From a virus (Duplodnaviria > Heunggongvirae > Uroviricota > Caudoviricetes), in IMG/VR virus record IMGVR_UViG_3300037423_001636, positions 141,169-205,168 of that record: DNA of 64,000 nucleotides; one strand, written 5' to 3'. The notes beneath the pieces were generated by a model. It did no database searches. It was given only the letters and a program-made list of their open reading frames with translations, and had not been told where the DNA came from. Position numbers and translations under genes: made by a program. This document shows positions 5,056 to 49,092 of this stretch, piece after piece. How positions within the stretch are numbered: the stretch's first letter is position 1; every line of letters begins with the position of its first letter.

Positions 5056-5056
5056 T

Positions 5057-19206: not shown

Positions 19207-19211
19207 ATTTC

Positions 19212-19287: not shown

Positions 19288-19317
19288 ATTTCAGTTGCAG
19301 ACGTTCGCTGTTCGTCC

Positions 19318-19430: not shown

Positions 19431-19440
19431 CTAACGACCG

Positions 19441-19620: not shown

Positions 19621-19625
19621 TTTAC

Positions 19626-19704: not shown

Positions 19705-19709
19705 ATTTT

Positions 19710-20104: not shown

Positions 20105-20192
20105 AGGAGGGTGGCTCGACAAGTAAGGCAACGGTTTCATAAGCCGTGGGGAGAAATCCCTTATACGGGGGCAGTACCCGTTCCTCCTACCA
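20105..20192 (+). tRNA. Class II tRNA with apparent anticodon CAT (loop TTCATAA)
   Basis: Acceptor AGGAGGG/TCCTCCT. The D region TGGCTCGACAAGTAAGGCA is shared with the unit at 17001. Anticodon arm ACGGT-TTCATAA-GCCGT. Variable-arm hairpin GGGA-GAAA-TCCC. T arm ACGGG-GGCAGTA-CCCGT. Encoded CCA. Confidence 0.45.
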
Positions 20193-20198
20193 ATTTAC

Positions 20199-20273
20199 GC
20201 CGCCAACTCATAGAAAGCGATGAACTGACTTGGTAAGTCAGGCAGCAGGGCGCAAGTCCCTGTGGTGGCTCCA
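20199..20273 (+). tRNA. tRNA-Thr(GGT)
   Basis: Acceptor GCCGCCA/TGGTGGC. D stem TCAT/ATGA. Anticodon arm CTGAC-TTGGTAA-GTCAG. T arm CAGGG-CGCAAGT-CCCTG. Encoded CCA. Confidence 0.65.
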
Positions 20274-20346
20274 TTTTGATCCTGTACACAGGATCATACA
20301 GCGGTTGACAGTCCCCGCTGGGAGTGGTTAGAGTCCACAGGACCGA

Positions 20347-20429
20347 GCCGATGTGGTGGAACGTATACACAACAGGTCGAGAGCCTGTCGCCGCAAGGAT
20401 TGGGGGTGCGAGTCCCTCCATCGGCACCA
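20347..20429 (+). tRNA. tRNA-Leu(GAG), class II
   Basis: Perfect acceptor GCCGATG/CATCGGC. Anticodon arm ACAGG-TCGAGAG-CCTGT. 13-nt variable arm. T arm GGGGG-TGCGAGT-CCCTC. Encoded CCA. Confidence 0.6.
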
Positions 20430-20435
20430 ATTTAT

Positions 20436-20520
20436 GGGCAGTTGGCGTAACAAGCAGCCGCGCGAGTCTTAGAAGCTCGTGGAGAAATCCGTATGGGTGC
20501 AATTCCCTTACTGCCTACCA
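20436..20520 (+). tRNA. tRNA-Leu(TAG), class II
   Basis: Acceptor GGGCAGT/ACTGCCT. Anticodon arm CGAGT-CTTAGAA-GCTCG. 13-nt variable arm. T loop TGCAATT. Encoded CCA. Confidence 0.6.
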
Positions 20521-20526
20521 ATTTAT

Positions 20527-20611
20527 GCGCGTATGGTGGAACTACTATACACAGCAGTTTCAGGAACTGCCGACTTCGGTCTTGGGGGTGGAAATCCCTC
20601 TACGCGCACCA
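20527..20611 (+). tRNA. tRNA-Leu(CAG), class II
   Basis: Perfect acceptor GCGCGTA/TACGCGC. Anticodon arm GCAGT-TTCAGGA-ACTGC. 13-nt variable arm. T arm GGGGG-TGGAAAT-CCCTC. Encoded CCA. Confidence 0.65.
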
Positions 20612-20745
20612 ATTTCCCCGTAGCTGAGAGAGATGCAAGCGCCATATCGAAACGTCGCAAGATGGATTCCGCAAGGACGGTATGGGACGATGTGCAAACA
20701 TCAGAACAGAGTGGAACTCACACTCTCGGGGAAAAATCTTTTCAC

Positions 20746-20823
20746 GGCCCGTTAGTATTACGTTCGCTAGATCGCTGCCCTTTCAAGGCAGAGGAGACGG
20801 AGCATCACCGTCACGGGCTGCCA
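20746..20823 (+). tRNA. tRNA-Glu(TTC)
   Basis: Acceptor GGCCCGT/ACGGGCT. Anticodon arm CTGCC-CTTTCAA-GGCAG. T arm GACGG-AGCATCA-CCGTC. Encoded CCA. The D region is oversized. Confidence 0.5.
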
Positions 20824-20828
20824 ATTTT

Positions 20829-20903
20829 CCCCTCGTCTTCTATACAGTAGGAAAACAGATTCTCAATCTGAAAAAGCGGATGCAAGTTCCGCCGAGGGGA
20901 CCA
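20829..20903 (+). tRNA. tRNA-Glu(CTC)
   Basis: Perfect acceptor CCCCTCG/CGAGGGG. D loop TATACAGTAG. Anticodon loop TTCTCAA. T arm GCGGA-TGCAAGT-TCCGC. Encoded CCA. Confidence 0.6.
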
Positions 20904-20907
20904 ATTT

Positions 20908-20961
20908 GACTCCACGAAAACTATCAAGTTAGCGAGGGTGAGAATCCCTTTGGAGTCGCCA
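20908..20961 (+). ncRNA. Mini tRNA-like unit (54 nt): acceptor stem + T arm + CCA, with the D and anticodon arms replaced by a short hairpin
   Basis: Perfect acceptor GACTCCA/TGGAGTC. Discriminator G and an encoded CCA. T arm GAGGG-TGAGAAT-CCCTT. The central 19 nt fold only as AACT-ATCA-AGTT. Confidence 0.4.
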
Positions 20962-20967
20962 ATTTAC

Positions 20968-21057
20968 CGGCTCGTGCTTGGAATGTATACAGCGGGGTCT
21001 TAAAAACCTTGGCTCCTTCAATGGAGATTGTGGGTGCGAGTCCCATCGGGCCGACCA
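20968..21057 (+). tRNA. Class II tRNA, Leu-like (anticodon loop CTTAAAA, TAA)
   Basis: Acceptor CGGCTCG/CGGGCCG. Anticodon stem GGGGT/ACCTT (two G-U pairs). 19-nt variable region. T arm GTGGG-TGCGAGT-CCCAT. Encoded CCA. Confidence 0.4.
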
Positions 21058-21216
21058 ATTTGAGTGTAGTGTAACAGTGAGCACGTTGGTGAGAGCAGGT
21101 TTCCTCAATCGTGACACCGCTGGCTCATAACTGGCAAGGACATGATTTGATAACTGTAAGCCTTGAATACATGCCAAAGGTCCGGTGCAATTCCGGCGCT
21201 CAACCTAAATTTTCAT

Positions 21217-21300
21217 GCCGTTGTGGTGAAATAGTAAACACAGTAGTCTCAAAAACTACCGACGAAAGTCTTGTGGGCGCGACTCCCACCTTCGGCACCA
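21217..21300 (+). tRNA. tRNA-Leu(CAA), class II; acceptor imperfect
   Basis: Anticodon arm GTAGT-CTCAAAA-ACTAC. 13-nt variable arm. T arm GTGGG-CGCGACT-CCCAC. Encoded CCA. Acceptor GCCGTTG/CTTCGGC has two U-U mismatches. Confidence 0.45.
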
Positions 21301-21468
21301 ATTTCACGGTCATTGAGGGCGACGAAATCAACCCATCCGAGGCAAAGTCGAGCGACCTGAGCCGTGAATCCATTATGGTCCCGTGTCGCAGCAGACCCGA
21401 GAGATTTATACCCTCTAGCGCGCCAGATTAGCGCCGTGATCAGGGGCAGCACCTGACGGGACTACCAA

Positions 21469-21570
21469 TTTCTCTGTTCCCGAAGGAGTGCATTCCAAAG
21501 TAGCCCATGCACGGGGCGGTGAGGTTCTATCGCGATCATACAGAGCTTTTGACCCGCGCGAACAGAGATT
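21469..21570 (+). ncRNA. About 100-nt structured RNA closed by a 9-bp terminal helix (first of the Ro60-upstream structured-RNA series)
   Basis: A 5' TCTCTGTTC pairs with a 3' GAACAGAGA about 85 nt away, followed by TTCTTTTT. Internal GTGCAT/ATGCAC and other hairpins are present. There is no CCA end. Confidence 0.35.
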
Positions 21571-21576
21571 CTTTTT

Positions 21577-21653
21577 GGCTCCTACTCCTAGATAGCGAGG
21601 ACCTCGCCTCGTAAGCGAGAGCTGAGGAGACTGCGATGTCTCAGGAGCCTCCA
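21577..21653 (+). tRNA. tRNA-Thr(CGT)
   Basis: Perfect acceptor GGCTCCT/AGGAGCC. D stem TCC/GGA. Anticodon arm CTCGC-CTCGTAA-GCGAG. T stem GAGAC/GTCTC with a 6-nt loop TGCGAT. Encoded CCA. Confidence 0.55.
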
Positions 21654-21656
21654 CTT

Positions 21657-22340
21657 TAGTCAGATAGCGAAACGCATCGGTTACTTCCGCCAACCCGTTG
21701 GGCTCACGCCCGACAAAAAGCCCGTGAACATGGAACCACGGCGACCGTGCAAATTATTCTTCTGACTTTCTACTTTGCTGTGGCGATAGGAAGCACTTAC
21801 TTCTTCGTTATTCAAATGAAACTGCCTCGCAAGGGGCGTCTGTGCATCCGCCTGTTCCCAGCAATCTATTTCCTGATGTCGTTAGAGTAAACGGTTACTT
21901 CATATTGGAATGATCGGTCTGCAAGGACCATACCCGTTCTCGCCTGTTACTCAGGAAAACTATTTTTCATTTTGCCGTAGCGAAGATCGCGGTTACTTCA
22001 TTGCAAACGAAACAACACCGCTATCGTTTATTCTCGGCAATCCACTTTCCTCAGTAGCGCAGATTGGGAGTTCTTCTATTATCACAAAAGGCCCGGTCGT
22101 CTATTCTCTGAGGGATCAATTTGGAGTGGCGTTAGAAAAGGAGTTCTTCGTATCATAAACGAGTAGTGAGAGTTCGAACCTCTCGGGGTCCACTATTACG
22201 GGCCTTTAGTGTAATGGCAGCACACTTTGGGGCGCAAGCCCCGCTCGCCTTTTCGCCTGTTCCCTCCAATCTTTTTCACGGTAGCGTAGAATACGATTTC
22301 TTCGTGAGTGCAACACCCCACCAGCCCCGCCATTACTTTT
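21657..22340 (+). ncRNA. Series of about six ~100-110-nt structured RNA modules immediately upstream of the Ro60 gene (candidate Y RNA / YrlA-like paralogues)
   Basis: Each unit repeats a hairpin of the form GCGxAGAxCGC followed by GTTACTTC or GTTCTTCGT (at about 21665, 21790, 21885, 21975, 22045, 22135 and 22280). Several units are closed by long-range 5'/3' pairing (for example AGTCAGA at 21657 with TCTGACT at 21762). The last unit has a canonical T arm GAGAG-TTCGAAC-CTCTC (22168-22184) and a CAT anticodon-like loop (22147-22163) but does not close into a tRNA acceptor stem. Confidence 0.4.
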
Positions 22341-22431
22341 TATGGGGCTGCTAGCGTATTCGCTAATTCTCCGTGATATTCTCTATACAATTCCCCACGG
22401 GCAATCAAGCTTTGTGGTGGCGCTAATAAAC

Positions 22432-23850
22432 ATGAAGACCAATAAAAAGTCAGTATCGACATTCAAGACCGCCCCGGCCGCCAAGCGTGTTGCCGGTGGT
22501 TCCGGCGCTGTCGCCGACACGATTACTGCGGAGCAAACTCTCCGTCGTTGCGTGCTAACCAATCTCCTGTGGGAAGATTGTGCGTATGAATCCGGAGTGG
22601 AGATCGCACAAAAAATCCGCGAGACCATTCCGCAGGTTCCCGCCGATCGCGTCGCAGCAATCGCCATCGAAGCGCGCGGCCAGCAAAAGCTCCGCCACGT
22701 TCCGCTGCTCCTCGTTCGCGAGATGGCGCGGTTGGATACACACCGCCATGTCGTGGCTGACACTCTTCCCCAGATCATTCAGCGGGCCGATGAGCTTGCT
22801 GAGTTTTGCGCAATCTGGCAGAAGGACGACAAAAAGCCGTTGTCCAAGACCCTATCAGCGCAAGCCAAGAAGGGTCTGGCCCGCGCCTTCGTCAAGTTCG
22901 ACGAATATGCTCTTGCGAAGTACAATCGCGACAACGCGGTCAAGCTGCGCGATGTGCTGTTCCTTTGCCACGCCAAGCCGGAAAACAAGGCTCAAGAGAA
23001 GCTGTTCAAGCGGCTGATCAACGATGAGCTGAAGACCCCGGACACGTGGGAAGTTGAGCTGTCGGCCTCCACCGACAAGAAGGCTTCATGGACTCGTCTC
23101 CTCGAAGAGGCCAAGCTTGGCGCTCTAGCCTTCATCCGCAACCTGCGCAATCTGACTCAGGCTGGCGTCGAGAAGAATCTCATCCGAGACTACTTCAAGA
23201 CGGTCAACCCGGAACGCGTTCTTCCGTTCAACTTCTTGTCCGCAGTTCGTGAGGCTCCAGAATACACCGCTCAGCTTGAGACCCTCATGCTGAAGTGTCT
23301 GGCAACCTTCCCGAAGCTGAAGGGCAAGACGGTGTTTATTGTTGACGTGTCGGGCTCGATGACCAGTGGGTTAGCCGGCAAGTCGTCCATGAACCGACTC
23401 GACGCAGCAGCGGCACTGACTGCGCTGATGCGGGAAGTCTGCGAAGAGCCAGTTATCTACGCTACGGCTGGATGTGACGGTTCTCGCAAACACGAGACGA
23501 AGGAAGTCCCAGCGGCCCGCGGTTTCGCGCTGATGGAAGAGATTCGCAAGATGCAGCACTCCCTCGGGGGTGGTGGTATCTTCCTCTGCCAGAGCACGAA
23601 GTTCGTTAAGGAGCTGGAGAAGACGGCTGATCGGCTTATTGTCCTGAACGACAGCCAAGATTGTGACTATGTGAAGGACCCGAATCAGGCGGCAGCGTTT
23701 GGTCGGTTCAACTATCTCATGGACGTTTCTTGCCACACGAAGGGTGTAGCCTACAAAGCTTTCACTCACATCGACGGCTGGAGCGAAAGTGTGATTAACT
23801 TCGTATATGAGACGGAGCGCATGGCGCTTCAATCGCGGCAGAAGAAGTAG
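22432..23850 (+). CDS. rsr: Ro60 / Rsr orthologue (TROVE domain + C-terminal vWA domain)
   Basis: The N-terminal TROVE-like region reads ...RRCVLTNLLWEDCAYESG...HVPLLLVREMAR.... The C-terminal vWA/MIDAS reads KTVFIVDVSGSMTSG. The architecture matches Ro60. The start was moved from the six-frame ORF (22342) to the ATG at 22432 because the extension overlaps an RNA hairpin. Confidence 0.75.
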   Translation: MKTNKKSVSTFKTAPAAKRVAGGSGAVADTITAEQTLRRCVLTNLLWEDCAYESGVEIAQKIRETIPQVPADRVAAIAIEARGQQKLRHVPLLLVREMARLDTHRHVVADTLPQIIQRADELAEFCAIWQKDDKKPLSKTLSAQAKKGLARAFVKFDEYALAKYNRDNAVKLRDVLFLCHAKPENKAQEKLFKRLINDELKTPDTWEVELSASTDKKASWTRLLEEAKLGALAFIRNLRNLTQAGVEKNLIRDYFKTVNPERVLPFNFLSAVREAPEYTAQLETLMLKCLATFPKLKGKTVFIVDVSGSMTSGLAGKSSMNRLDAAAALTALMREVCEEPVIYATAGCDGSRKHETKEVPAARGFALMEEIRKMQHSLGGGGIFLCQSTKFVKELEKTADRLIVLNDSQDCDYVKDPNQAAAFGRFNYLMDVSCHTKGVAYKAFTHIDGWSESVINFVYETERMALQSRQKK

Positions 23851-24700
23851 CCTTCTGTATAGCAGCATACGCTTCCTCCTCGCTCGGAAAGTAGCCCACA
23901 AAAGCTCTTCCTAGCCGGGTTGGAAGCTGTGCTTTCCATGGGTCCCGAGTGCGCGCCTTCACTCGGGAAACCCCTTCAAATCTAGAGCTGAGCTTTAGCG
24001 CTTTGTCTCGAATCGTCATATAGGCGGCTTGCTTGCGAGGCAGAGCGAGATCGGTTCCAGAGCCCCAAATGTAGTCTCCCAGAGCATATACGGGCCGACG
24101 CCCGTTGACTCGGAAGACACTCCCTTTCCCTCGTTCGTTCGTTGTGATGTCGATTCGATATTCGACGCTGAGTCGTTTACAGAGATCGCTCAGAAAGGAC
24201 CAATCCTGATCGGCTGGTCCCGCAATCTGGATCTCATGAGTGCCAAATCGCGGGTCAACACATACGCATCCATCTCCATCAATCAATCCCAGATACCAGT
24301 AGCACTGTAGATGTGACGGGATGGTGTCTAGTATCGCCCGTGGAGAACTCGACTTAGAACAGTAGCCAAGAGCGCTCAGATGTTCGACGAGATAGTGGTT
24401 GGTTGTCGTAATCACCCACGCATTTTTCCACCCCTCATTTCGAGAGGGTTTAGAGTAGCATCCCCACCGCCCGGTGCGCAGCATAATGGGTCTGAAGTGT
24501 TCAACGTCTGGCGATGTCGTGGATAGGACTACGCTTTGTGTTCTATGTGTGTTTCGGATGTGCCCATCGGCCCAAAGCAGGCCGAGGATATAGGCGTGAA
24601 CAGGCTCTGTCACGTGAATGAATGGCTGTGGATTCACAGCGTATTGGTCGAACGGCTTGAGCCGGCGTTTGACTGGTCTGGGGATGGTATTGGTCTGCAT
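23795..24700 (-). CDS. LAGLIDADG homing endonuclease (two LAGLIDADG motifs, AP2-like C-terminus)
   Basis: Minus strand. The motifs are YILGLLWADGHI and YWYLGLIDGDGCV. An AP2-like DNA-binding tail GYFPSEEEAYAA follows. The gene is free-standing between the Ro60 gene and further tRNAs. Confidence 0.8.
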   Translation of the reverse strand: MQTNTIPRPVKRRLKPFDQYAVNPQPFIHVTEPVHAYILGLLWADGHIRNTHRTQSVVLSTTSPDVEHFRPIMLRTGRWGCYSKPSRNEGWKNAWVITTTNHYLVEHLSALGYCSKSSSPRAILDTIPSHLQCYWYLGLIDGDGCVCVDPRFGTHEIQIAGPADQDWSFLSDLCKRLSVEYRIDITTNERGKGSVFRVNGRRPVYALGDYIWGSGTDLALPRKQAAYMTIRDKALKLSSRFEGVSRVKARTRDPWKAQLPTRLGRAFVGYFPSEEEAYAAIQKATSSAAIEAPCAPSHIRS

Positions 24701-24753
24701 ACAGGATTGCGACTGGATTTACACGCATTCCGAGCAGAGTTTTATTGATTTTC

Positions 24754-24825
24754 GCCGATTGCTTCAGCAAGCCCGCGAGTTTTGTAAACTTGAGGAAGAG
24801 AGGGCAGCACTCTCAGTCGGCTCCA
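24754..24825 (+). tRNA. tRNA-Thr(TGT)
   Basis: Acceptor GCCGATT/AGTCGGC. Anticodon arm CGAGT-TTTGTAA-ACTTG. T arm GAGAG-GGCAGCA-CTCTC. Encoded CCA. The D region is short. Confidence 0.45.
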
Positions 24826-24831
24826 TTCTAT

Positions 24832-24920
24832 GGTGGTAGAGGCAGAAGTAACTCAAAGCACCGCCCTGTGAAGGCGGGTCCGCAAGGACATAGCGAGTGT
24901 GAGACTCGTCTACCACCCCA
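24832..24920 (+). tRNA. tRNA-His-like (GTG) with G-1 and a C73 discriminator, atypical body (long variable hairpin, weak D arm)
   Basis: Acceptor GTGGTAG/CTACCAC with an extra 5' G at position -1 and a C discriminator (the His identity set). Anticodon arm CCGCC-CTGTGAA-GGCGG. Variable hairpin GTCC-GCAA-GGAC. T arm GCGAG-TGTGAGA-CTCGT. Encoded CCA. Confidence 0.4.
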
Positions 24921-24926
24921 ATTTAT

Positions 24927-25001
24927 GGGCCTATAGTTCAATAGACAGAACCTCAGTTTGCGGAACTGACGATCCCAGTGCGAGTCTGGGTGGGCCTACC
25001 A
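24927..25001 (+). tRNA. tRNA-Arg(GCG)
   Basis: Acceptor GGGCCTA/TGGGCCT. Anticodon arm TCAGT-TTGCGGA-ACTGA. T arm CCCAG-TGCGAGT-CTGGG. Encoded CCA. Confidence 0.5.
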
Positions 25002-25029
25002 TTCTACGCTTGACTCCGGCCGCTAGGCT

Positions 25030-33894: not shown

Positions 33895-34980
33895 ATGACT
33901 CCTCCCGTCTCCATTCCTACAGCGCTTGAACTTCTTCGCACCATGACGCGGCCAGAAGAGATCTTCGGCGCGAACCCCGCCGACCTAGAGGACGTGTGGA
34001 AACTCTGGGCAAAGCGCGTTCATCCCGACATGGCTCCGACTGCGAAGCTAAAGGAGTTAGCCGACGAAGCGTTCAAACTGCTTACGGCCCTCAGAACGCA
34101 GGCCGAAGACAGAATCAGCCGCGGAGTTTACGGTTCCAAAACCCCCACTGTACTCGCAACTCTACGCACCAAGACCGCGGCCTATTCTCTCCACGTTCAA
34201 TCTGGCTCCGACGACATCTCAGACTATTTTGAAGGAGAGTCAGACAAGGCGGCGCAATGTGTCGTGCGGGCTGGCCGGGACCCGCGGAACAACGATCTTA
34301 TGAAGACCGAGGCTGATGTGCTGGCTGCACTCCCCGCCAAGCTGGAGCCCAAGCATGCGGCCTATTTCCCCGTTTTACTCGACTCATTCGAGGTTCAGGA
34401 GGGTAGCACGAAACGACGAGCGAATGTGTTCGTTCCTTCCGTCGGGGCCGTGACTCTGGAAGCGGTGCGAGCTGCATATCCCAAAGGGCTTGATGTGAAA
34501 GATGCGGCGTGGATGTGGAACCGAATGTTGGAGGCGCTGCATCTGCTTCACGGTCAGGGCTTCGTCCATGGGAACGTTACCCCAGACAGATTCACCATCA
34601 TTCCAGATACTCACGTTGGGACTCTGCGAGACTTTGCCTACGCGGTGAAGGCCGGCGGAAAGGCTAAGGCCATCAGCCCCAAGTGGCGTACATTCTATCC
34701 ACCAGAACTGACGGAGAAGAAAGAGCTTGACTTTAGCGCCGATCTGTTTTCTGCTGCCCACTGCATGAATTTCCTCCTCGGCGCAGACCTCGGCTCGACT
34801 CGCATCCCCGCTGGTATTCCAGTGGCGGTTGCGGGGCTCTTGCGGGCCTGCTGGTTGGGAAAGGCTCATCGGGTGAAATCTGCTCAGGAATTGCACGCGG
34901 ACTTCAAGGAGGTTCGCAAGGGTCTTGGCTGGAAGAGTGAGTTTAGAGCGTTCAGTGTCCCAACCGCAGTTTCAGTCTAA
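33895..34980 (+). CDS. J-domain (DnaJ-like, HPD motif) fused to a protein-kinase-like domain
   Basis: The N-terminus ...DLEDVWKLWAKRVHPDMAPTAKLKELADEAFKLLTAL matches J-domain helices II-III with the HPD motif. The C-terminus has a kinase-like catalytic loop LHGQGFVHGNVTPDRF (HGD/N-x4-N type) and a DF(G)-like LRDFAY. Confidence 0.5.
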   Translation: MTPPVSIPTALELLRTMTRPEEIFGANPADLEDVWKLWAKRVHPDMAPTAKLKELADEAFKLLTALRTQAEDRISRGVYGSKTPTVLATLRTKTAAYSLHVQSGSDDISDYFEGESDKAAQCVVRAGRDPRNNDLMKTEADVLAALPAKLEPKHAAYFPVLLDSFEVQEGSTKRRANVFVPSVGAVTLEAVRAAYPKGLDVKDAAWMWNRMLEALHLLHGQGFVHGNVTPDRFTIIPDTHVGTLRDFAYAVKAGGKAKAISPKWRTFYPPELTEKKELDFSADLFSAAHCMNFLLGADLGSTRIPAGIPVAVAGLLRACWLGKAHRVKSAQELHADFKEVRKGLGWKSEFRAFSVPTAVSV

Positions 34981-35481
34981 TCACAACTCGTTACATGGAT
35001 TCGCTAGCAAAACTCCTTTTCTCCAGCGTAATCGCCGCTCCTATCTCAGAGCGTCGGGTAGCCCTCAACGAAATCGATGGCTTCAGCATCAGCACGGCAT
35101 ACACAGACGATCAAGGCTATGAGACCGCCGTGTCTGGAACCGATGGTCACTGGCACCCCGTAGAGCGCTACGGGTCCAAGGAGATGGCCGCCGCTGGTCA
35201 CTTCAAGTGGGTCCAGTTAATCAAGGACGGTAAGCGTGACATCACAGTACTGGGGTACGACGACATCATAGACCCTCAAAACATCACTCTCAGTTAAGAT
35301 CAACCATTAATCCACTAAATCCTATGGGCGCTCCCTCAACCTATGACGAGCCCGCTGAAAAGCCGGCCACACCCGCGGCACCCGCGGCACCCGCCGCTCC
35401 AGCTGCTACAGAGCCAACTGTGTCTGCCACTCCCGTCAGCACAACCACCACAACGCCTACCGGCGAATAATCACTACTCAA

Positions 35482-36501
35482 ATGGGCTCCAGTTCATATT
35501 CACACGATGTATTCAGCGCCCGCATGGCATCGCACGATGCCGCCGGCACTTCAGCCTTCACCCACGACACTGATGTCAAGACTGGCAAAGCTGCACGCGC
35601 AGTTCATGCCACCCTCGATCCAAAATTGGTCGCCGGCCCCAAGTCTCCTTACGCTGGCAAGGTCATGCGGGAATCCCGCGACTCTGATGCGCATCCAAAC
35701 AGCGTCGCCATCGGCGTCCTTTTCGACGTGACTGGCAGCGTCGGCAACGGCCCACGTACATTCATCAAAAAGCTTGGTCCCCTGATGAGCCTCATCGTTA
35801 AGAAGGGCTATCTTGCCGACCCACAACTCCTCTATGGAGCCATTGGGGACGAAACCTCGGACGATGTGCCCCTCCAGATTGGTCAGTTCGAGGCGGGAAA
35901 CGAGCAAGAAGAATCTCTCTCGAAAATCTTCATCGAAGGAAATGGCGGCGGCCAGCATTACGAGAGCTACGAACTCGCCATGTACTTCATGTCCCGCCAT
36001 ACCTCAGCTGACTGCTGGGAGAAGCGCGGTAAGAAGGGCTATCTGTTCATTGTCGGCGACGAGCTGCCGCGCGAGAAGATTGATCGCAAGGCCGTCGAGC
36101 GGCTGATCGGTGACAAGCTGGACGAGAATCTGTCCACCGCCGAAGTCCTTGAGGAGCTGCGTGAGCACTATGAGGTCTATTGGATCTTCCCAAACTGCTC
36201 GTCCTACTACACGATGACGCTCACCAGCGAGCCGCTCATCCAGATGTTCGGCCAGAATTTCATCCGTCTGGAGAACATCGAAGAAATCGCGGAGGTTGTC
36301 GCGGCCACGATCGGTATCTCCGAGGGATTTAATCCAAAGGACATCGTGGACGACCTGATTGATGCCGGCCTCTCCAAGGCTGGGGCCAAACGCGCGACCA
36401 CTGCTCTTGCCACTATCGCTTCGACTTCCGTTACGAAGAAGTCTGCGACCGTGGAAGGCAAGTTGCCCAAGCGTGGCAAGGATTCGGCTGAACGGCTGTA
36501 G
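35482..36501 (+). CDS. Hypothetical protein with a vWA-like (MIDAS DxTGS) segment
   Basis: The sequence IGVLFDVTGSVGNGPRTF resembles a MIDAS motif. It continues with a C-terminal acidic/AKR-rich tail. Confidence 0.4.
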   Translation: MGSSSYSHDVFSARMASHDAAGTSAFTHDTDVKTGKAARAVHATLDPKLVAGPKSPYAGKVMRESRDSDAHPNSVAIGVLFDVTGSVGNGPRTFIKKLGPLMSLIVKKGYLADPQLLYGAIGDETSDDVPLQIGQFEAGNEQEESLSKIFIEGNGGGQHYESYELAMYFMSRHTSADCWEKRGKKGYLFIVGDELPREKIDRKAVERLIGDKLDENLSTAEVLEELREHYEVYWIFPNCSSYYTMTLTSEPLIQMFGQNFIRLENIEEIAEVVAATIGISEGFNPKDIVDDLIDAGLSKAGAKRATTALATIASTSVTKKSATVEGKLPKRGKDSAERL

Positions 36502-36781
36502 TCTTATGGCCGACAAGAAATCAGCTTACACAGTCAATGACCGGCGGGGCAAGGACCCGAAAACCCTTCCCTGCCGAGTCTGCGGCTGTCCCACCGTAGA
36601 GCACTCCAAGAATTACAATAGCCCTACTATGGAGTGCGTACAGTATCTACGTGGCAAGCTAGGCGCGTTGCAGGATGATGTGCGGGCTGCTTTGAATGAT
36701 TCTACCAAGTATCCACAGCTAAAAATGCACAAGATGCAGGAAGAGCGGTTGGAACGCGCACTCAAGAATCTGTGAATAACG

Positions 36782-38110
36782 ATGCCACGCGCATGGACAG
36801 TAACTGACCTACTTTTTGGTGACAGCGGAAAAGGAACGCTCACCGAAGCGTTGGTCCGTAGGTATAAGGTCCCGCTTGTGGTTAGGTATTCTGGCGGCCC
36901 GCAGTGCGGCCATAACGTGGTGCTGGAAAACGGTACTCACCACGTCTTCAGCCAATTCGGCGCTGGAACCCTAGCGGGCGCTCGCACTCTACTCACCAAA
37001 CACGTCCTCATCGATCCGGTTCGCCTGATCAATGAGGGCGATGTGTTGGAGAAGAAGGGTGTGTCAGATCCGTTCGGCCGTGTGATGATAGACACTCAGT
37101 GTCTCGTCATCACGCCTTTCCACCGAGCTGTAAACCGACTGAAAGAGCTGTCTCGTGGTGCCGCCCGGCACGGGAGCTGTGGAGTGGGCGTGGGGGAGAC
37201 CGCGGCTTATGCTCTCAAACATCCTGACACGGCGCTGCGAGTGGAAGATCTCTTGTTTCATAGAAAGACTAGAGAGAAGCTTGAGCAGATTTCCAAGGAC
37301 TGTGGGGAGGAGATTGTCCAGTTTTGCGGGGGAGCGATGCCTCCCGAAGGCGCGGCCGAATGGGGGGTTTTTACCAGCCCCGACACCATCGACGCGTATC
37401 TCAATCGCTACCGCACGTTCTGCGAATCTGGAGTTATATTCGTGTCTACTAAGACCGCGCTAAACCGCATTCGCACTCAGGACACTGTGTGGGAAGGCGC
37501 GCAAGGTGTGCTGCTAGATGAGTGGGTAGGATTCCACCCGTTCACAACTTGGTCCACAGTCACTTTACAACACGCCATCGAACACCTCGCGCTAGCCGGC
37601 GTTTCGCGTGACGATATCACGAATATCGGCGTCCTGCGCTGCTATGGCCACCGCCACGGTGCCGGCCCATTCCCCACGGAAAACGAGAGCCTCCGTCCTA
37701 TTCTCGACGACAAATACAATCCAGAGAATTTGTGGCAGGGACAGTTTAGAGTTGGCTGGTTTGACGCGGTGATGGCGGACTACGGGAAACGAGTAGCCGG
37801 GCCGATAGACCAGCTTGCGCTCACCCACATAGATAGATTGGCTAGCCGGGACAAGTGGCTATTGGCTACAGGATATCCCGGCGGCGAGATCCTACCGCCA
37901 CATCCAGAGGACTTCACAGCACGAGAACATCTGACAAACGATCTAATGAAGCTGCGTTCAGACGACTTGACCGTGGAGAACGTGGTCAGCTCGCGGGTGC
38001 CAGCAATTATCTCAGACTATCTTGATCTCCCGGTAACTGTCACGTCCAGTGGGCCGACATATGCCGACAAGCAGTTCTCGCAGACTCTTGTAGAATCAAT
38101 ATCTGCATAG
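36782..38110 (+). CDS. Adenylosuccinate synthetase homologue (PurA family; candidate PurZ of the 2-aminoadenine pathway)
   Basis: 442 aa. P-loop LLFGDSGKGT (PurA GDEGKGK). GGPQCGHN (PurA GGHNAGH). VWEGAQGVLLDEW (PurA FEGAQGTLLDID). An identical GAGPFPTE. VGWFD (PurA TGWLD). Confidence 0.75.
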   Translation: MPRAWTVTDLLFGDSGKGTLTEALVRRYKVPLVVRYSGGPQCGHNVVLENGTHHVFSQFGAGTLAGARTLLTKHVLIDPVRLINEGDVLEKKGVSDPFGRVMIDTQCLVITPFHRAVNRLKELSRGAARHGSCGVGVGETAAYALKHPDTALRVEDLLFHRKTREKLEQISKDCGEEIVQFCGGAMPPEGAAEWGVFTSPDTIDAYLNRYRTFCESGVIFVSTKTALNRIRTQDTVWEGAQGVLLDEWVGFHPFTTWSTVTLQHAIEHLALAGVSRDDITNIGVLRCYGHRHGAGPFPTENESLRPILDDKYNPENLWQGQFRVGWFDAVMADYGKRVAGPIDQLALTHIDRLASRDKWLLATGYPGGEILPPHPEDFTAREHLTNDLMKLRSDDLTVENVVSSRVPAIISDYLDLPVTVTSSGPTYADKQFSQTLVESISA

Positions 38111-38742
38111 CAGATTGTCAAAGCTGTGCTTTGGCGCTTGACAGATAGTGCAGAGTGTAGATGATGGTTCTCATGCCGAACCTACTGCGTGAAGGTATTT
38201 CCGCAATTCGACTCTCCTACGTAAAGCGGTTTGCTTCATTCGTACTGAGCTTGTCCGGCTATTCAGTTTTATTCTGGGCGGACTGGAGAGTCGCGCTTGG
38301 AGTCTGGCTCCTGCAATGGGGCGGCAATGTTTATCGTTCAATCGGCAGCTAATCTCAACCCTTTCATTCATTCTCATGGAAATCCGGCATGTAGACGGTT
38401 CCGTATCGGATACCGACAAACTCCCTGACACCACGGCCTTAGTTATGGAGAAAGTCAAGGAACTCCTTGACCTCTGTGAGGCGCATAAAATCCCGCTTCT
38501 GCTTAGGTTCAGTACCCATGATGGCAAGCACTCCGGCGCGCACTGCGCTCTTCATCCCACGAAGGAGGCCGGGCAAGTGATTATTGAGTTGGTGAGCGAT
38601 TGGTGCGATTTGATTGAGAGGTTCTGGCCGGGTTGTCGGGTCATGATCGTGCATGGAGAGCCGCCGGATGACTTGGACGACACAATGCGGAGATTGGACG
38701 AGCCGCCGCCGCCCACAATCTAAGCCTAGACTTAATCTCGTC

Positions 38743-40239
38743 ATGATTCTTCCCGAGCTTTCCCTGTCTAGCTGGGCGGGTATCACCGCGGCATTTGCGC
38801 TTCTCGCCGGGTTTTGGCGAAACGCGGTAGGTGTGGCACGCTGGTTTTCCAGCCTCATCATCTGCCGAACGATCATCAAGGACGAGGCGGCCCGTGCCGT
38901 CATGACACATTGTTGGAAGCATGGCCGACGTTCGCCTTTCGGCGTCCGGGCGTTTGGAGGTTTGCAGCACTACGTGTTTCCTCACAAGCGGGTTGAAGTG
39001 GTTGCGTTCGAAGGGGTCACTTCCGATCCTACACTTTTTTTCTTCGGCCGCGTACCAGCGTTGGTGTGCAATGGGCTTACCGGGAAGCAGCACGAATCCA
39101 TCAACATCGGAAGGCAGTGTGGAGACATTAACCCAGTGATCATCTGGTCTATTCGAGGCACACTGGATTTGGATGGCCTAATCGAACAGGCTGTCACCGA
39201 GTTCAATCAGCTGCGTCAGCAGCGGGTGGCCGGCAAGATGAAGGAGAAACGGTTCAACGTGTTTCGAATGGACGGAGATGGAGGCTACGCCCCGACGAAC
39301 GCAGGTTCTAAAAGCGATGAAGTTCCAACGGCCCGTAGCAATATGGAAGAGATGGTGTCCAGTATCCAGCACGGAGAATTACGGCTGATTAGCTGGAAGT
39401 TCGAAGACCTGATTGAACGGAACAGCGATATGCCACCGTTCAGCCTATATCCGACAGATCCGGAAGTCCTCGCCCAGTTCGACGAAATCGATACATGGCT
39501 AAAGAAAGAAGAATGGTTCCGGGCGAAAGGGGTGCCGTGGCGGCGGGGCTATCTTCTCTATGGACCGCCCGGCGCTGGTCGTTCGACTTTGGTAAAGAAT
39601 CTGGCAATCAAGCATGATCTACCTATCTACTCATTCGATCTTTCCACGTTCTCCAATCGATCATTCGTAAACGCGTGGAAAAATGCGCAGCAGAATGCGC
39701 CAGCCATTGTACTGCTTGAAGATATAGATAGCGTGTTCCTCGGCCGCACGAATTGCCTACAGGCCCAAGCCACCACGAAACAGTTACTCACTTTCGACTG
39801 TCTTCTGAATACCATTAGTGGGGTCGGCTCTTGTGATGGCATATTACTCTTTGTAACCACAAACAAGGTTGAGACTCTCGATTCTGCGTTGGGCACGCCT
39901 AATGACGGAAACCATTCCAACTGCTCTAGCTCACGTCCGGGGCGCTTGGATCGCTGTATCTATCTGGGAGAAATGAAGGAGCCACAGCGGCGCAAACTGG
40001 CAAATCTGATTCTTGGAGAGTGGCCTGATGTCGTGGATGGAGTGGTGGCGGCTGGTGATGGAGAAATGGCGGCGCAGTTTCAGGAGAGATGTGTGCGTGA
40101 AGCGACTAAGCTATTTTGGACGCGCGGTGGGGTGGAGTGTGATCCACCTAAAAATAGAGGGGCGGCGACAATATCAGTAGCTACCACTGTTGATCGGTTA
40201 AAGGAGCTATTCGATGAAAAAGATCGTATTATGTCATGA
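38743..40239 (+). CDS. Membrane-anchored AAA+ ATPase (BCS1-like)
   Basis: N-terminal transmembrane segment LPELSLSSWAGITAAFALLAGFW. Walker A YLLYGPPGAGRST. Walker B VLLEDIDS. Second region of homology PGRLDRCIY. Confidence 0.65.
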   Translation: MILPELSLSSWAGITAAFALLAGFWRNAVGVARWFSSLIICRTIIKDEAARAVMTHCWKHGRRSPFGVRAFGGLQHYVFPHKRVEVVAFEGVTSDPTLFFFGRVPALVCNGLTGKQHESINIGRQCGDINPVIIWSIRGTLDLDGLIEQAVTEFNQLRQQRVAGKMKEKRFNVFRMDGDGGYAPTNAGSKSDEVPTARSNMEEMVSSIQHGELRLISWKFEDLIERNSDMPPFSLYPTDPEVLAQFDEIDTWLKKEEWFRAKGVPWRRGYLLYGPPGAGRSTLVKNLAIKHDLPIYSFDLSTFSNRSFVNAWKNAQQNAPAIVLLEDIDSVFLGRTNCLQAQATTKQLLTFDCLLNTISGVGSCDGILLFVTTNKVETLDSALGTPNDGNHSNCSSSRPGRLDRCIYLGEMKEPQRRKLANLILGEWPDVVDGVVAAGDGEMAAQFQERCVREATKLFWTRGGVECDPPKNRGAATISVATTVDRLKELFDEKDRIMS

Positions 40240-40789: not shown

Positions 40790-41170
40790 ATGAAGCTCGC
40801 CATAATCGGCTCGCGGTCCTTTCAGGACTACGATTTACTCTGTCAGACCATGGACAAATGGTTTTACGAGCCTCGTGGCGGAACATCGTGTCCGATGTGG
40901 CTCTACAACGTTCGTGAGATTGTATCAGGCGGCGCGGCTGGAGCAGATAGCCTTGGTGCCCGCTGGGCCAGAGAGCAGGGGATCAAGCTGACCGAATTCA
41001 AACCGGATTGGGAGAAACATGGGAGGCGAGCTGGTTTTATCCGGAACGAGGATATAGTGGCCGCTTCAGACGTGGTGCTTTCATTTTGGGATGGGGTAAG
41101 CCGGGGCACTGCAAACAGTTTATCGATTGCCAAGAGACTCAAGAAGCCGACGATCATCATCTATTTCTGA
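40790..41170 (+). CDS. SLOG / DUF2493 (YspA-like) protein, second paralogue
   Basis: The sequence MKLAIIGSRSF...VSGGAAGADSLGARWAREQGIKLTEF...VVLSFWDG matches the SLOG Rossmann signature (GSR...GGA.G.D). Confidence 0.55.
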   Translation: MKLAIIGSRSFQDYDLLCQTMDKWFYEPRGGTSCPMWLYNVREIVSGGAAGADSLGARWAREQGIKLTEFKPDWEKHGRRAGFIRNEDIVAASDVVLSFWDGVSRGTANSLSIAKRLKKPTIIIYF

Positions 41171-41172
41171 CC

Positions 41173-42822
41173 ATGCCAGACAACATCCTCGAAGCCTCTT
41201 TAGTCTCTTTAGAAGAAGCCGAACGTCTCGACAAGTGGGCCGCGCTTCATGAGAAAGCCCAATCCCGCGCATTCGTCCGGCTAGAGCTGGCGCATGAGGA
41301 CCCGGTGAAAGGTGGGCGCATCTATAATGTGCGCTATCGTCGGTTTTGCTACAAGGATTATAAGCATGCTCGCTGCCAGATTTACGAAAGCCCTCATTCC
41401 CTATCGTTCTCCTATCAGACGCAGAGCAATGGGCGAATGAGTGAGAGTTGGCGCTACGTCTGCTCGTTTAGATCTGGACGGTTGCGGCTGTTCAAGGTGA
41501 GTCCTCCACGTGACGCCGCTGATGTTGGCAAAAAGGTCATTCGTAGTGGGTTCCCAGAGCGCTTTGACCTCATGGCGGCCATCAAAGAGCCTTATCCGGC
41601 CGCGAAAAAGCGGTTTGCTCGTCGGTTCATAAAAATGTTGAGGGCCAAAGCGCGGACTAATGGCGCGACCCTACCAAAAGGGGATTTCGACGATCTCACC
41701 GAGTTTCTCATTCAAGCACTCTGGCCGGCGGCGAAGTCTGTGCGGGAGCAGTTTAAGGCGATTCGCGGGACCGAACTCAATATTGATCACAATCTCCGCT
41801 GGATTCTTCGGCGGCTCCGTGGAGCGCCAGACTCCATCGTAAAGAGCATGACAGGATATGACTCTCGTGTAGTGACTCGGCTATTCTGGGAGGCGATAAA
41901 ATGCCAACCTCGTGATTCAAAGCGTCCCTATGTCCCTAATCTTAACGAGGATAACTGGGAATCCAAATGGAGCTGGCTGGCCCTCCTGAGGACCTATCTA
42001 CCCGTGGACTATACTCAGCAAATCCTCAAATCCGAGAAGATTGCTGAATGGTGCATTCGGTTCAGCGAAGACCCCTCCGCGCTTCGCCGCTTCCTGAAGC
42101 AGTGGGACGCGAAGAAGGTGACGAGAATGTTGACCGATACCTGCGCGGATGGATTCACGATTCGCGACACAATGCAGATGCTGGATCAATGGCCGAATCA
42201 ACACAACGGCGAACAGCTCACGCGACGATTTAAGGACATTCCTGAGATGCACGAATGGTTGTCAGCTGAACGTAATCGCGCCGTCGTAGAACGACAGGCG
42301 GCATGGGTACGCCGCATGCAGAACCTACAGAACCAGATGACGCCAGAACAACGGGCGGAGGAAGAGGCCCGGGAAGCCGCGTGGAAGAAGAAGCAGGAAG
42401 AACCTCTCTCCCGGATGGAATGGGCCAAGGAAATTGATGGCGACATGGTCATGACTCCAGACGGTAAAGTCTACATGATAGTCGCGCCGAAGACGGGGCT
42501 TGACCTCGTCGCGTGGGGAGAGTCCATGAGGAATTGCATCGGGTCTTACCGCGCGCAGATTGAGACAGGATATTCACGAATCCTTGGGGTCATAGAAGGC
42601 AGTGAGATAAAATGGGGTATAGAAATTGATCCTAAAACCCGGCGCGTTATTCAGTTTAGAGGAGTCTGCAACAAGGAGGCTCCACTAGAAGTGAGGAATG
42701 CGGTAGAGAGTGAACTGGTCAAGCATAGGCTGATCGACTTTGCGTATCACCAGAAAGTAACACTTGAACCGGGCGCTTACGCTGCGATAGCCGCCCTAGA
42801 CCCTGCTGAAACGATTTTCTAA
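41173..42822 (+). CDS. Hypothetical large protein
   Basis: 549-aa ORF from the ATG at 41173. The six-frame ORF starting at 41008 overlaps the SLOG gene in another frame and was trimmed. Confidence 0.45.
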   Translation: MPDNILEASLVSLEEAERLDKWAALHEKAQSRAFVRLELAHEDPVKGGRIYNVRYRRFCYKDYKHARCQIYESPHSLSFSYQTQSNGRMSESWRYVCSFRSGRLRLFKVSPPRDAADVGKKVIRSGFPERFDLMAAIKEPYPAAKKRFARRFIKMLRAKARTNGATLPKGDFDDLTEFLIQALWPAAKSVREQFKAIRGTELNIDHNLRWILRRLRGAPDSIVKSMTGYDSRVVTRLFWEAIKCQPRDSKRPYVPNLNEDNWESKWSWLALLRTYLPVDYTQQILKSEKIAEWCIRFSEDPSALRRFLKQWDAKKVTRMLTDTCADGFTIRDTMQMLDQWPNQHNGEQLTRRFKDIPEMHEWLSAERNRAVVERQAAWVRRMQNLQNQMTPEQRAEEEAREAAWKKKQEEPLSRMEWAKEIDGDMVMTPDGKVYMIVAPKTGLDLVAWGESMRNCIGSYRAQIETGYSRILGVIEGSEIKWGIEIDPKTRRVIQFRGVCNKEAPLEVRNAVESELVKHRLIDFAYHQKVTLEPGAYAAIAALDPAETIF

Positions 42823-47547: not shown

Positions 47548-49092
47548 ATGAGTCTGCACAAATCGAATCCGGGTAAAACCGCTGCCAAAACCGAGGGCGA
47601 AAAGATGAAAGCCGCCCTCTTGTCCACCCTGCAAGAAATCACCCGCGGCCCCGGCGTGGCCACCTCCGACGTGAATATCGTCCATCGCGGCACGAAGATC
47701 GTTCTGCCGGGCGAGCCGCACCCCATGGAGCCGCGTGAGGCTATCGAGCATCTGGAACGGCTTGATGAAGCGATGAACACGGAAGTTTCTGTCCGTGAAG
47801 AGATTCGCGCGTTCCCTCTCGACGGTGCCGTCGCGCTAATGAAGGCCATGCAGGAGAAATTCGGCTGGGCCACGCCGCGCCCGACGATGGGCTTCTTTGG
47901 TCCCAATCCCCCGCAGATGGTGACTGTGGAGACCTCCACCAACCCGGCCGACTCCATTCAAGTCCTCTGGGGCAAGTTCGAGCTGCCCGGCATTGAGGGA
48001 GACCTCCAGTGCGGCGCGGATATGACCGCGGACAAGGAGTTCATCTTCGTCATCCACGGCACTGTCCTCAAGCGTGAGGCCGGGCTCATCCGTGAGCTGG
48101 CCGAGCTGACTCGCCAGTTCGTCGTGGCAGAGTCCATTTACAAGGGCAAGGCTATTCGTGTTCGCACGGATGGCAACGGTGTCCTCACTGCCGACGCGCC
48201 ATCCTTCATCCACACGACTCGGAAAGATCCGCTGATTCTGCCGAAGCTCACGGAAGCTGCGTTACAAGCGAACGTCTTCGCCCCTGTCGAGCGCGCCTCC
48301 GAATGCCGGAAAGCCGGTATTCCGCTCAAGCGCGGCGTCATTCTCGCCGGCCCTCCGGGCACAGGCAAGACTCTCGCCAGCCAAGAGCTGGCAGACAAGG
48401 CAATCAAGAGCGGCTGGACCTTCATCCTGCTCCCAGATACCCGCGGTCTGGCCTCGGTCATTCACTTCGCCCGTCGCTACGCCCCGTGCGTGGTGTTCTG
48501 CGAAGACATTGATTGCGGCCCGGCGTCTGAACAGCGCGGCTTCAAGCTGAACGATCTCCTCAACACCATCGACGGCATTCAGACCAAGGACGCCGAGGTC
48601 ATGCTCTGCTTCACAACGAATGACGTGAAGAAGATTGATCGGACTCTGGTTCGTCCCGGCCGCATCGATGCCATCATCGAGTTCCCGAAGCCGCAGGACA
48701 CCGAGACCATCGAACGGTTCCTCCGGCACTACGGTAATGGTCGTATCGCCATCAACACGTCTCTCACCAAGAGCTGCCAGCTCCTCGAAGGTCAGTTGCC
48801 AGCCATCATCCGGGAGGCCGTGGAGCGTTCAAAGCTCTATGCGCTCGCCCGCGGTGTCAACGCCGACGACATCAATCTCGTGGACGACGACATCGAAGCG
48901 GCCATCGTGACCATGAAGGCGCACATGGACTTCTTCCACTCGAAGAAGGAGATTCAGCCGAGCCCTGAGGAACAAGTCGGCATCGCCATGCGCAATCTGC
49001 TTGAAACGTCCGCCAGCAATATGATCACGAGCGGCAAGCTGGACAAGCGACTCACGATCATGATGGACGCAATGCGTGTGCCGCAGGGCTGA
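47548..49092 (+). CDS. AAA+ ATPase (classical AAA clade) with an N-terminal ~230-aa domain
   Basis: Walker A VILAGPPGTGKT. Walker B CVVFCEDID. Second region of homology TNDVKKIDRTLVRPGRIDAIIEF. Confidence 0.7.
   Translation: MSLHKSNPGKTAAKTEGEKMKAALLSTLQEITRGPGVATSDVNIVHRGTKIVLPGEPHPMEPREAIEHLERLDEAMNTEVSVREEIRAFPLDGAVALMKAMQEKFGWATPRPTMGFFGPNPPQMVTVETSTNPADSIQVLWGKFELPGIEGDLQCGADMTADKEFIFVIHGTVLKREAGLIRELAELTRQFVVAESIYKGKAIRVRTDGNGVLTADAPSFIHTTRKDPLILPKLTEAALQANVFAPVERASECRKAGIPLKRGVILAGPPGTGKTLASQELADKAIKSGWTFILLPDTRGLASVIHFARRYAPCVVFCEDIDCGPASEQRGFKLNDLLNTIDGIQTKDAEVMLCFTTNDVKKIDRTLVRPGRIDAIIEFPKPQDTETIERFLRHYGNGRIAINTSLTKSCQLLEGQLPAIIREAVERSKLYALARGVNADDINLVDDDIEAAIVTMKAHMDFFHSKKEIQPSPEEQVGIAMRNLLETSASNMITSGKLDKRLTIMMDAMRVPQG

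Follow-up and report, generated by a model that had tools for sequence, protein, structure and literature searches.

A protein family joining a J-domain to a predicted pseudokinase heads a three-gene cassette shared by phages and bacteria

Main finding

A stretch of 64,000 nucleotides from a Caudoviricetes virus (IMG/VR record IMGVR_UViG_3300037423_001636, positions 141,169 to 205,168; called here the window, position 1 being its first letter) carries at 33895..34980, on the plus strand, a gene for a 361-amino-acid (aa) protein. The protein consists of a J-domain at its N terminus and, at its C terminus, a domain of eukaryotic-type protein-kinase (ePK) fold, which by its sequence is predicted to be a pseudokinase. 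The gene opens a conserved cassette and is followed there by a gene for a predicted VWA-fold protein with a metal-ion-dependent adhesion site (MIDAS) and by a gene for a divergent ligase resembling adenylosuccinate synthetase (PurA). This order was found in the window, in other large phages, in cluster C mycobacteriophages, in Chloroflexota, and in Saccharibacteria. We read the protein, with a probability of about 0.4, as a J-domain protein of class C in which the pseudokinase would serve as a binding module and DnaK would thereby be brought to the cassette, rather than as a kinase acting on Hsp70.

J-domain proteins set where Hsp70 acts, while bacterial pseudokinases are barely studied. The gene is named only serine/threonine kinase in ~200 deposited phage genomes, a label that misses the J-domain and asserts a kinase activity that is doubtful. 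The fusion defines a family of >1,400 clusters, with its gene order locked to the VWA and PurA-like partners.

The N-terminal domain is a J-domain

The features of the gene and of the J-domain, all on the plus strand, are as follows.

33895..34980, +, gene of the J-domain and pseudokinase protein, 361 aa, ATG start (open reading frame [ORF] list)
33946..34134, +, J-domain, residues ~18-80, with a short helix I, helix II, the HPD loop, and a long helix III/IV reaching 'RGVYG' (profile, DSSP)
34021..34029, +, HPD tripeptide, H43 P44 D45 (translation)

The ATG overlaps by 4 nucleotides (ATGA) the stop of an upstream ORF of 73 aa. A metagenome protein from a 205-kb JGI contig (P0001) is 100% identical to the window protein and was called there as a gene of 345 aa; since the first 16 residues of the 361-aa form are conserved among the homologues, the longer form is favored. 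The ORF is real, and so are the strings on which an initial annotation of this DNA had based its proposal of a J-domain fused to a kinase-like domain: the translation contains 'KRVHPDMAP', 'AFKLL' (residues 59-63), 'FVHGNVTPDRF' (residues 223-233), and 'DF' (residues 246-247).

Twenty metagenomic homologues, 36-61% identical to the window protein, were aligned, and residue conservation was counted over 173 relatives; position numbers are those of the window protein. A profile built from the N-terminal ~85 residues of the family, a mycobacteriophage member included, retrieved ~60 J-domains from the PDB and almost nothing else. The best match was DNAJB8 (3.3e-6), and the others included DNAJA3, DNAJB2, DNAJB6, auxilin, DNAJC3, DnaJ, CbpA, Sis1, and HscB; the alignment spans helix II, the HPD, and the region up to the 'R..Y' of helix IV. 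Pfam DnaJ (PF00226) was matched by 7 of the 20 homologues, at best with 2.8e-6. An AlphaFold2 model of the window protein, built from the 20-sequence alignment, had a predicted local distance difference test score (pLDDT) of 91.4. By DSSP the model has helices at residues 21-24, 28-42, and 50-76, with the HPD at the turn between the two long ones, a predicted pattern that fits a J-domain. Helix II is basic (K36, K40, R41), and helix III carries 'EAFKLL'.

His is found at position 43 in 168 of the relatives and Asp at position 45 in 170. Position 44 is more variable (Pro in 125, Glu in 35, Ala in 9), so that 72% of the family reads HPD, 20% HED, and 5% HAD; every copy from Chloroflexota and Saccharibacteria reads '..AHPDHN..'. 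The profile matches to the PDB, the Pfam matches of the homologues, the conservation, and the model agree and identify the N-terminal domain as a J-domain, its HPD intact and its helix II basic. This part of the initial annotation was borne out: significant J-domain and kinase-fold matches were obtained at the family level, and the HPD lies at the turn between two long helices of the model. The recruitment of DnaK through the J-domain, which the annotation had also suggested, is plausible. An hhalign comparison of the N-terminal profile with the single sequence of Escherichia coli DnaJ gave 39% probability over 23 columns around the HPD, which was too weak, and was not used.

The kinase-fold domain lacks canonical catalytic residues

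The following features of the C-terminal domain were recognized.

34150..34929, +, protein-kinase-fold domain, residues ~86-345, predicted pseudokinase (Foldseek, profiles, Pfam matches in homologues)
34258..34278, +, beta3 strand 'CVVRAGR', with Arg125 as the equivalent of the VAIK Lys (family alignment)
34567..34590, +, degenerate catalytic loop HGNVTPDR (canonical HRDLKPEN), with Asn227 in place of the catalytic Asp and Arg232 in place of the Mg-binding Asn (family alignment)
34630..34638, +, DFA, the DFG equivalent, residues 246-248, Asp246 kept (family alignment)

The C-terminal domain has a eukaryotic-type protein-kinase fold. A Foldseek search of the PDB with the model returned NIK, YabT, PknB, VRK1, and Aurora with E values of ~1e-11 and a TM-score (TMt) of up to 0.76, and the family profile matched CK2, CDPK, CaMKII, TTK, StkP, and YabT in the PDB with E values of 1e-9 to 1e-6. 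Pfam Pkinase was matched by 18 of the 20 homologues, down to 3e-12. The window protein itself scored 20.3 bits against Pkinase (PF00069), below the gathering cut-off of 31.7 bits that some homologues pass, and was also subthreshold for Kinase-like; it matched the 'kinase' family phrog_3043 with an E value of 2.5e-30. Its catalytic loop aligns to 'VHSDLKPANF' of TTK. Residues with structural roles are kept throughout the family: the alphaC Glu (E139) in 172 of the 173 relatives, the HRD His (H225) in 172, the APE Glu (E271) in 163, the alphaF Asp (D283) in all 173, and the R280-equivalent Arg (R326) in 169.

The catalytic residues have fared differently. At position 227, that of the catalytic Asp, Ala was found in 141 relatives, Asn in 15, Ser in 9, Gly in 7, and Cys in 1, and Asp in none of the 173; the bacterial copies do not differ in this. 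Position 232, equivalent to N171 of PKA, is His in 114, Asn in 37, and Arg in 15, and is Arg in the window copy. The beta3 Lys (position 125) is present in 163 relatives (94%) and replaced by Arg in 6, as also in the window copy, in which the Gly-rich loop is degenerate as well ('SDDISDYFEG'). The DFG Asp (position 246) is found in 139 (80%), with Gly in 22, Glu in 7, and Asn in 5. By the usual sequence definition the domain is therefore classed as a predicted pseudokinase, the HRD Asp being missing family-wide and the beta3 Lys missing in this copy, and it looks catalytically dead from its sequence. Thus, the kinase-like C-terminal half proposed in the initial annotation stands as far as the fold and the DF motif are concerned, but the catalytic loop is degenerate, with Asp replaced by Asn and the Mg-binding Asn by Arg. 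The further proposal that the protein regulates Hsp70 by phosphorylation lost its footing: since the catalytic Asp, the Mg-binding Asn, and the beta3 Lys are replaced, a conventional kinase acting on Hsp70 or on another target is unlikely.

His240, just before the DFG position, is invariant (173 of 173), residue 232 is often His, and in most members 'D-W-C-Y' stands in place of DFG. Window residues 232, 240, and 246-249 thus delimit a conserved His/Asp/Cys cluster around the apparently dead active site, for which a metal site or a new chemistry are possible roles.

HER3, JAK2 JH2, and SelO were likewise defined as pseudokinases from their sequences and retain weak or different catalysis. An active atypical kinase or transferase tethered to the J-domain, which would phosphorylate DnaK or a client, AMPylate it in the manner of SelO, or itself be matured by DnaK, would accord with the confirmed ePK fold, with the high retention of the ATP-anchoring beta3 Lys, the alphaC Glu (99%), and the DFG Asp, and with the location of the invariant His240 and the frequent His232, which could be replacement catalytic residues near the active site. 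We regard such an enzyme as unlikely: none of the 173 relatives has the catalytic base and just 37 have the Mg-binding Asn, the window copy has lost the beta3 Lys and a regular Gly-rich loop, and no conserved partner phosphatase is encoded near the cassette.

Three candidate matches of the domain in PADLOC (MkoA, PD-T4-6, and mad6) were set aside as generic kinase-domain similarity, as were NCBIfam matches to the kinase regions of LanL and MAD6, which were far under the cut-off. A fold search of BFVD with the model returned only generic kinases of eukaryotic viruses.

The family occurs in phages and in bacterial chromosomes

An exhaustive profile search returned 1,481 clusters (50% identity) at E<=1e-30. 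Among the best 150 clusters listed, the proteins are 330-415 aa long and nearly all align end to end with the profile. Homologues in other phages, for which the initial annotation had proposed a search, are found in ~200 cluster C (Bixzunavirus) mycobacteriophages, where the protein is ~30% identical over ~90% of its length and labeled 'serine/threonine kinase', and in IMG/VR phage contigs of roughly 200 kb. A megablast search of phage genomes with 10 kb of the window gave no DNA-level match.

The family is not phage-specific, being also chromosomal in Chloroflexota and Saccharibacteria. A member is carried by 30 species-representative genomes of Chloroflexota, in some cases on contigs of 11-14 Mb; the carriers include Roseiflexus, Oscillochloris, Herpetosiphonaceae, Caldilineales, Ardenticatenales, Anaerolineae, and Kouleothrix, and the flanking genes are ordinary metabolic ones. 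Saccharibacteria-type carriers number at least one and probably three (L005, on a 644-kb contig, was confirmed from its translation, and L044 and L045 were recognized from tblastn matches and their gene order), and their copies sit among housekeeping genes such as those for ligA, a Mur ligase, and a tRNA synthetase. With the same protein standing among housekeeping genes in the chromosomes of both groups, the description of it as a new phage device for host takeover had to be abandoned.

Database names for members vary from 'serine/threonine kinase', 'kinase', 'phosphotransferase', and 'Protein kinase domain-containing protein' to 'hypothetical' and, for one orthologue, 'molecular chaperone DnaJ'. 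The cassette proteins of Saccharibacteria resemble the mycobacteriophage versions, consistent with genes having passed between Saccharibacteria and actinobacteriophages.

The gene heads a conserved three-gene cassette

The remaining features of the cassette in the window are listed below.

34995-35297, small ORF of 100 aa, not conserved in other loci
35324-35470, Pro/Ala/Thr-rich low-complexity ORF of 48 aa, not conserved in other loci
35482..36501, +, partner 1, VWA-fold protein of 339 aa (phrog_2971, annotated as of unknown function, E value of 1.3e-68)
35725-35739, +, MIDAS motif DVTGS of the VWA partner (family alignment)
36506-36775, ORF of ~89 aa with a CxxC...C motif, not conserved and unrelated to Ewok gp262
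36782..38110, +, partner 2, divergent adenylosuccinate-synthetase-like ligase of 442 aa (Pfam Adenylsucc_synt, 4.6e-58)

The three window proteins were searched by tblastn on 42 loci, 36 of which were long enough to be informative. The order J-pseudokinase, VWA, PurA-like was the same in 33 of these 36, the 33 being the loci with both partners detected, and the gene tables of three additional loci (L043-L045) have it too; 30 Chloroflexota loci carry the cassette. The VWA gene is downstream of the J-pseudokinase gene in 36 of the 38 loci whose contig extends beyond the latter gene, and directly adjacent to it except in L037. The mycobacteriophages Ewok and Catera have the J-pseudokinase homologue, then a hypothetical protein of ~340 aa, and then a 442-aa 'PurA-like adenylosuccinate synthetase'. 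Clustering of all the flanking ORFs gave no fourth conserved gene, be it for an Hsp70, a PP2C, or an AAA+ protein, and no plus-strand terminator-like site was found within 33895-38110. A stand-alone device is not what these loci contain. Between phages and bacteria, the cassette appears to travel as one unit.

Some phages have mobile insertions inside the cassette. A 595-aa version of the VWA gene (P0177; 6001-7788 of L006) occurs in a Bxz1-like contig, an HNH_3 endonuclease stands between the VWA and PurA-like genes of L043 (10140-10703), and the genes listed in the Pinkcreek paper include an HNH endonuclease placed between the kinase and PurA-like genes of that phage.

The VWA partner gave no match in sequence and profile searches against Pfam and the PDB, and it was the fold search alone that identified it. 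Its model (pLDDT 89.7, predicted TM-score [pTM] 0.89) retrieved integrin I-domains, vWF A domains, and the SpaC VWA domain with E values of ~1e-5 in Foldseek. The MIDAS motif DxTGS was present in 35 of 35 homologues, and D82-x-T84-x-S86, T174, and D193 were kept in 34-35 of 35. Judged by the predicted structure, the middle protein of the cassette is a VWA/MIDAS protein, with a Rossmann-like fold and a DxSxS-type motif. The VWA family has >5,500 detectable members. An invariant N-terminal Met-Gly and a strongly conserved 'EGxGGGQ' loop were also observed, together with a disordered tail, the last two residues of which are a conserved Arg-Leu (Arg in 33 and Leu in 32 of 35). Such a tail might serve as a docking peptide or as a pseudosubstrate.

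The PurA-like partner scored 152.6 bits against the NCBIfam equivalog for PurA (cut-off 402) and 42.5 bits against that for PurZ (cut-off 300). Its identity as a canonical PurA was rejected because the score was under the equivalog cut-off, and the reading as the PurZ of Z-genome phages was rejected as well. Equivalents of the catalytic Asp, His, and Gln are kept. The window copy has 'GSCGVGVGE' for the IMP-phosphate loop 'GTTGRGIGP' and 'THID' for 'TKLD', and the subfamily shares the motifs 'GD[AS]GKG', 'GGxQ[AC]GH', 'HGSCGxGxGE', 'TRHGAGP', and 'T[CH]LDR', by which the PurA-like proteins are delimited as a distinct conserved subfamily. Since the substrate-loop motifs are subfamily-specific, the substrates may differ from those of PurA. 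The RefSeq label of the Catera copy is '2-aminooxy adenylosuccinate synthetase'.

Proposed mechanism and its weak points

In the mechanism that we propose, the J-domain of a class C J-domain co-chaperone would dock on DnaK, which for the phage would be the DnaK of the host, and trigger its ATPase; Hsp70 would then clamp whatever the pseudokinase holds. The pseudokinase would be the binding or sensing module that confers specificity, possibly nucleotide-bound but without phosphate transfer. The likeliest client or partner would be the co-encoded VWA and PurA-like pair, with the MIDAS site gripping an acidic residue, and the cassette would be an Hsp70-driven device for the assembly, activation, or regulation of a nucleotide-metabolizing enzyme. 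An analogy may be the MoxR AAA+/VWA activases (CbbQO, NorQD, RavA-ViaA), in which a MIDAS-VWA adaptor is encoded beside the enzyme that it serves and works with an ATP-driven remodeling machine. The likeness is one of logic, since the cassette has no MoxR ATPase and the AAA+ motor would be replaced by Hsp70 recruited in trans via the J-domain. The wider proposal, in which the J-pseudokinase and the VWA adaptor form a hitherto unrecognized mobile control system that harnesses DnaK to assemble, activate, or gate a new subfamily of PurA-like ligases whose substrate-binding motifs are altered, and that phages use to rewire the nucleotide pool, is a tentative and rather doubtful extension.

Several observations weigh against the reading of the protein as a J-domain adaptor with a pseudokinase binding module. 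The window protein alone had no DnaJ match in Pfam and missed the J-domains of the PDB, its N-terminal 84 residues reaching only an E value of 0.05 to DNAJB8; since these single-sequence scores are subthreshold, the J-domain call for the window copy is based on the family-level evidence and the model. The ~20% of relatives with HED instead of HPD include most of those closest to the window copy. Of the altered tripeptides, only HPE is known as tolerated according to a 2026 review (PMC13254874), and the HED members would therefore be classed as altered J-domains, so that J-function may be altered in that part of the family. The retention of K125 (94%), E139, and D246 (80%) points to selection for nucleotide binding, and an unconventional catalysis would still be conceivable. 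In the window, the cassette is broken by nonconserved small ORFs (34995-35297 and ~36506-36775). Finally, what links the three cassette proteins to each other is their gene order and nothing further.

Should the wider proposal hold, the protein would be the first from a phage to combine a J-domain with a defined partner domain, and a chaperone-targeting role would fall to a bacterial pseudokinase; large phages would carry the cassette near genes for NAD salvage, NADAR, or NUDIX proteins so as to restore or redirect a nucleotide pool during infection. Bxz1 or Catera on Mycobacterium smegmatis would be a genetically tractable pair for the hypothesis that a pseudokinase adaptor directs Hsp70 to an enzyme of nucleotide metabolism.

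NAD-related neighbors and a TerY-P-like alternative

Genes related to nicotinamide adenine dinucleotide (NAD) accompany the cassette in several loci. In the window, the nearest is the following.

31871-32503, NADAR-domain protein, ~1.4 kb upstream of the cassette (Pfam, 1.4e-35; PADLOC PDC-M42C, 5e-29)

In locus L003, genes for an NAPRTase, a phosphoribosyl pyrophosphate (PRPP)-synthetase-like protein, and a NADAR protein stand beside the cassette as a NARP1-like set, and in L004 its neighbors encode NAMPT and a NUDIX protein. In all three Saccharibacteria loci (L005, L044, and L045) a convergent gene for an NrtR-type regulator (NUDIX plus WHD_NrtR) directly follows the cassette, and in two of them isochorismatase (PncA-like) and NAPRTase (PncB-like) genes precede it; judging from this arrangement, the Saccharibacteria cassette may belong to an NAD or ADP-ribose regulon. 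A literature search for a link between NrtR and the cassette found nothing relevant. The flanks of the Chloroflexota cassettes have no consistent NAD or defense theme, and because these loci are without NAD neighbors, we treat the NAD link as a lead only. NARP3 was also considered and set aside as an unrelated two-gene system.

These neighbors bear on an alternative, a signaling or conflict module in which the VWA protein and the kinase-like protein form a sensor switch. The switch would control the PurA-like protein, as an effector or to restore a nucleotide pool or an NAD-related one, with the J-like region mainly a structural or regulatory extension and Hsp70 dispensable. Its model would be the TerY-P triads of a VWA protein, a Ser/Thr kinase, and a PP2C phosphatase, which are predicted phosphorylation switches, some of them antiphage (PMC10542128). 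Pairs of VWA and Ser/Thr-kinase genes are an established theme, and here, too, a VWA gene adjoins a kinase-fold gene in a mobile bacterial module (PMC10542128). The NAD-related genes of L003, L004, the three Saccharibacteria loci, and the window would suit such a switch, as would the apparent travel of the cassette as a unit between phages and bacteria. We nevertheless consider it improbable. The cassette differs from the triads in having no PP2C, no Zn-ribbon/OB fusion, and no catalytic Asp, and in having a J-domain and a PurA-like enzyme. In addition, no PADLOC model was matched by the VWA or the PurA-like protein, and the Chloroflexota neighbors, being ordinary metabolic genes, provide no steady NAD or defense theme. 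Because H43 and D45 are very strongly conserved, the family appears to be under selection for Hsp70 contact, which argues against a J-like region of merely structural use. That the protein is an ordinary phage Ser/Thr kinase with an HPD arising by chance, as the database names kinase and phosphotransferase and the missing Pfam DnaJ match of the window protein alone might suggest, is contradicted by the profile, the conservation, and the structure, as well as by the absent catalytic Asp and the one orthologue auto-named 'molecular chaperone DnaJ', and is hardly credible.

Relation to known proteins

The mycobacteriophage proteins of Bxz1 (UniRef Q852V8), Catera (gp249), and Ewok (gp260) are of the same family and come closest among known proteins, with the HPD, an 'HGA' loop, and VWA-like and PurA-like genes downstream. 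In the cluster C records consulted, the label is kinase only, with no mention of a J-domain or of the lost catalytic Asp.

The nearest analogues in architecture are GAK (auxilin-2) and the DNAJB1-PRKACA chimera, each uniting a J-domain with a protein kinase in one polypeptide. The kinase of GAK is active, unlike that predicted here; GAK has the opposite domain order and contains PTEN-like and clathrin-binding regions. The DNAJB1-PRKACA chimera (PDB 4wb7), which was among the matches of the N-terminal profile, has the J-domain N-terminal to the kinase, as here, but its kinase is active and it is a somatic fusion rather than an evolved family. The corresponding loop reads 'HGN' in JAK JH2 and 'HRN' in HER3. 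Both of these likewise have an ePK fold in which the HRD Asp is replaced and the DFG Asp and alphaC Glu are kept; they have no detectable specific relationship to the window protein and are eukaryotic signaling domains paired with active kinase domains.

Among phage proteins, Rki of RB43 is a J-domain protein that acts through the host DnaK (PMC3486835). Like the window protein, it is phage-encoded and has an N-terminal J-domain with an HPD, but it has no kinase-like domain. A census quoted in the 2026 review counts 48 phage class C J-domain proteins, which are small and without another known domain (PMC13254874); from every one of them, the protein described here differs in being fused to a pseudokinase of 260 aa and in belonging to a cassette. 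In the literature searched, neither a fusion of a J-domain to a pseudokinase nor the cassette was found described, and the bare architecture may already be catalogued in the main J-domain protein census of bacteria and phages.

Other features of the window

The rest of the window contains a replication module, a tRNA array, and accessory genes.

378-12584, replication module with an exonuclease (phrog_704), a DnaB-like helicase, a second exonuclease, and a DNA polymerase of 901 aa (phrog_405, 3.6e-139)
15655-26413, +, 18 tRNA genes (Lys, Cys, Gly, Tyr, Ile, Pro, Asp, Val, 2 Gln, 5 Leu, 3 Arg) interleaved with small ORFs
22342-23850, 'RNA-binding protein' in or beside the tRNA array (phrog_850)
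25030-26079, RNA ligase in or beside the tRNA array (Pfam RNA_ligase, 4.6e-33)
28517-29926, 30195-31295, 38653-40239, 41008-42822, and 47548-49092, accessory genes for a DFP-like/class II aldolase-like fusion, a DUF4419 protein, two AAA-type ATPases, and a PcfJ-like protein
32886-33680, ORF of 264 aa with a weak twin-arginine signal-like N terminus (E value of 0.013) and a weak match to the central tail fibre J (phrog_31, 3.7e-6)

The region of the tRNA array suggests tRNA supply or repair, like that of Bxz1-type phages. The first of the two AAA-type ATPases gave weak IetA-like matches in PADLOC. The 264-aa ORF sits in the middle of the metabolic and accessory gene region.

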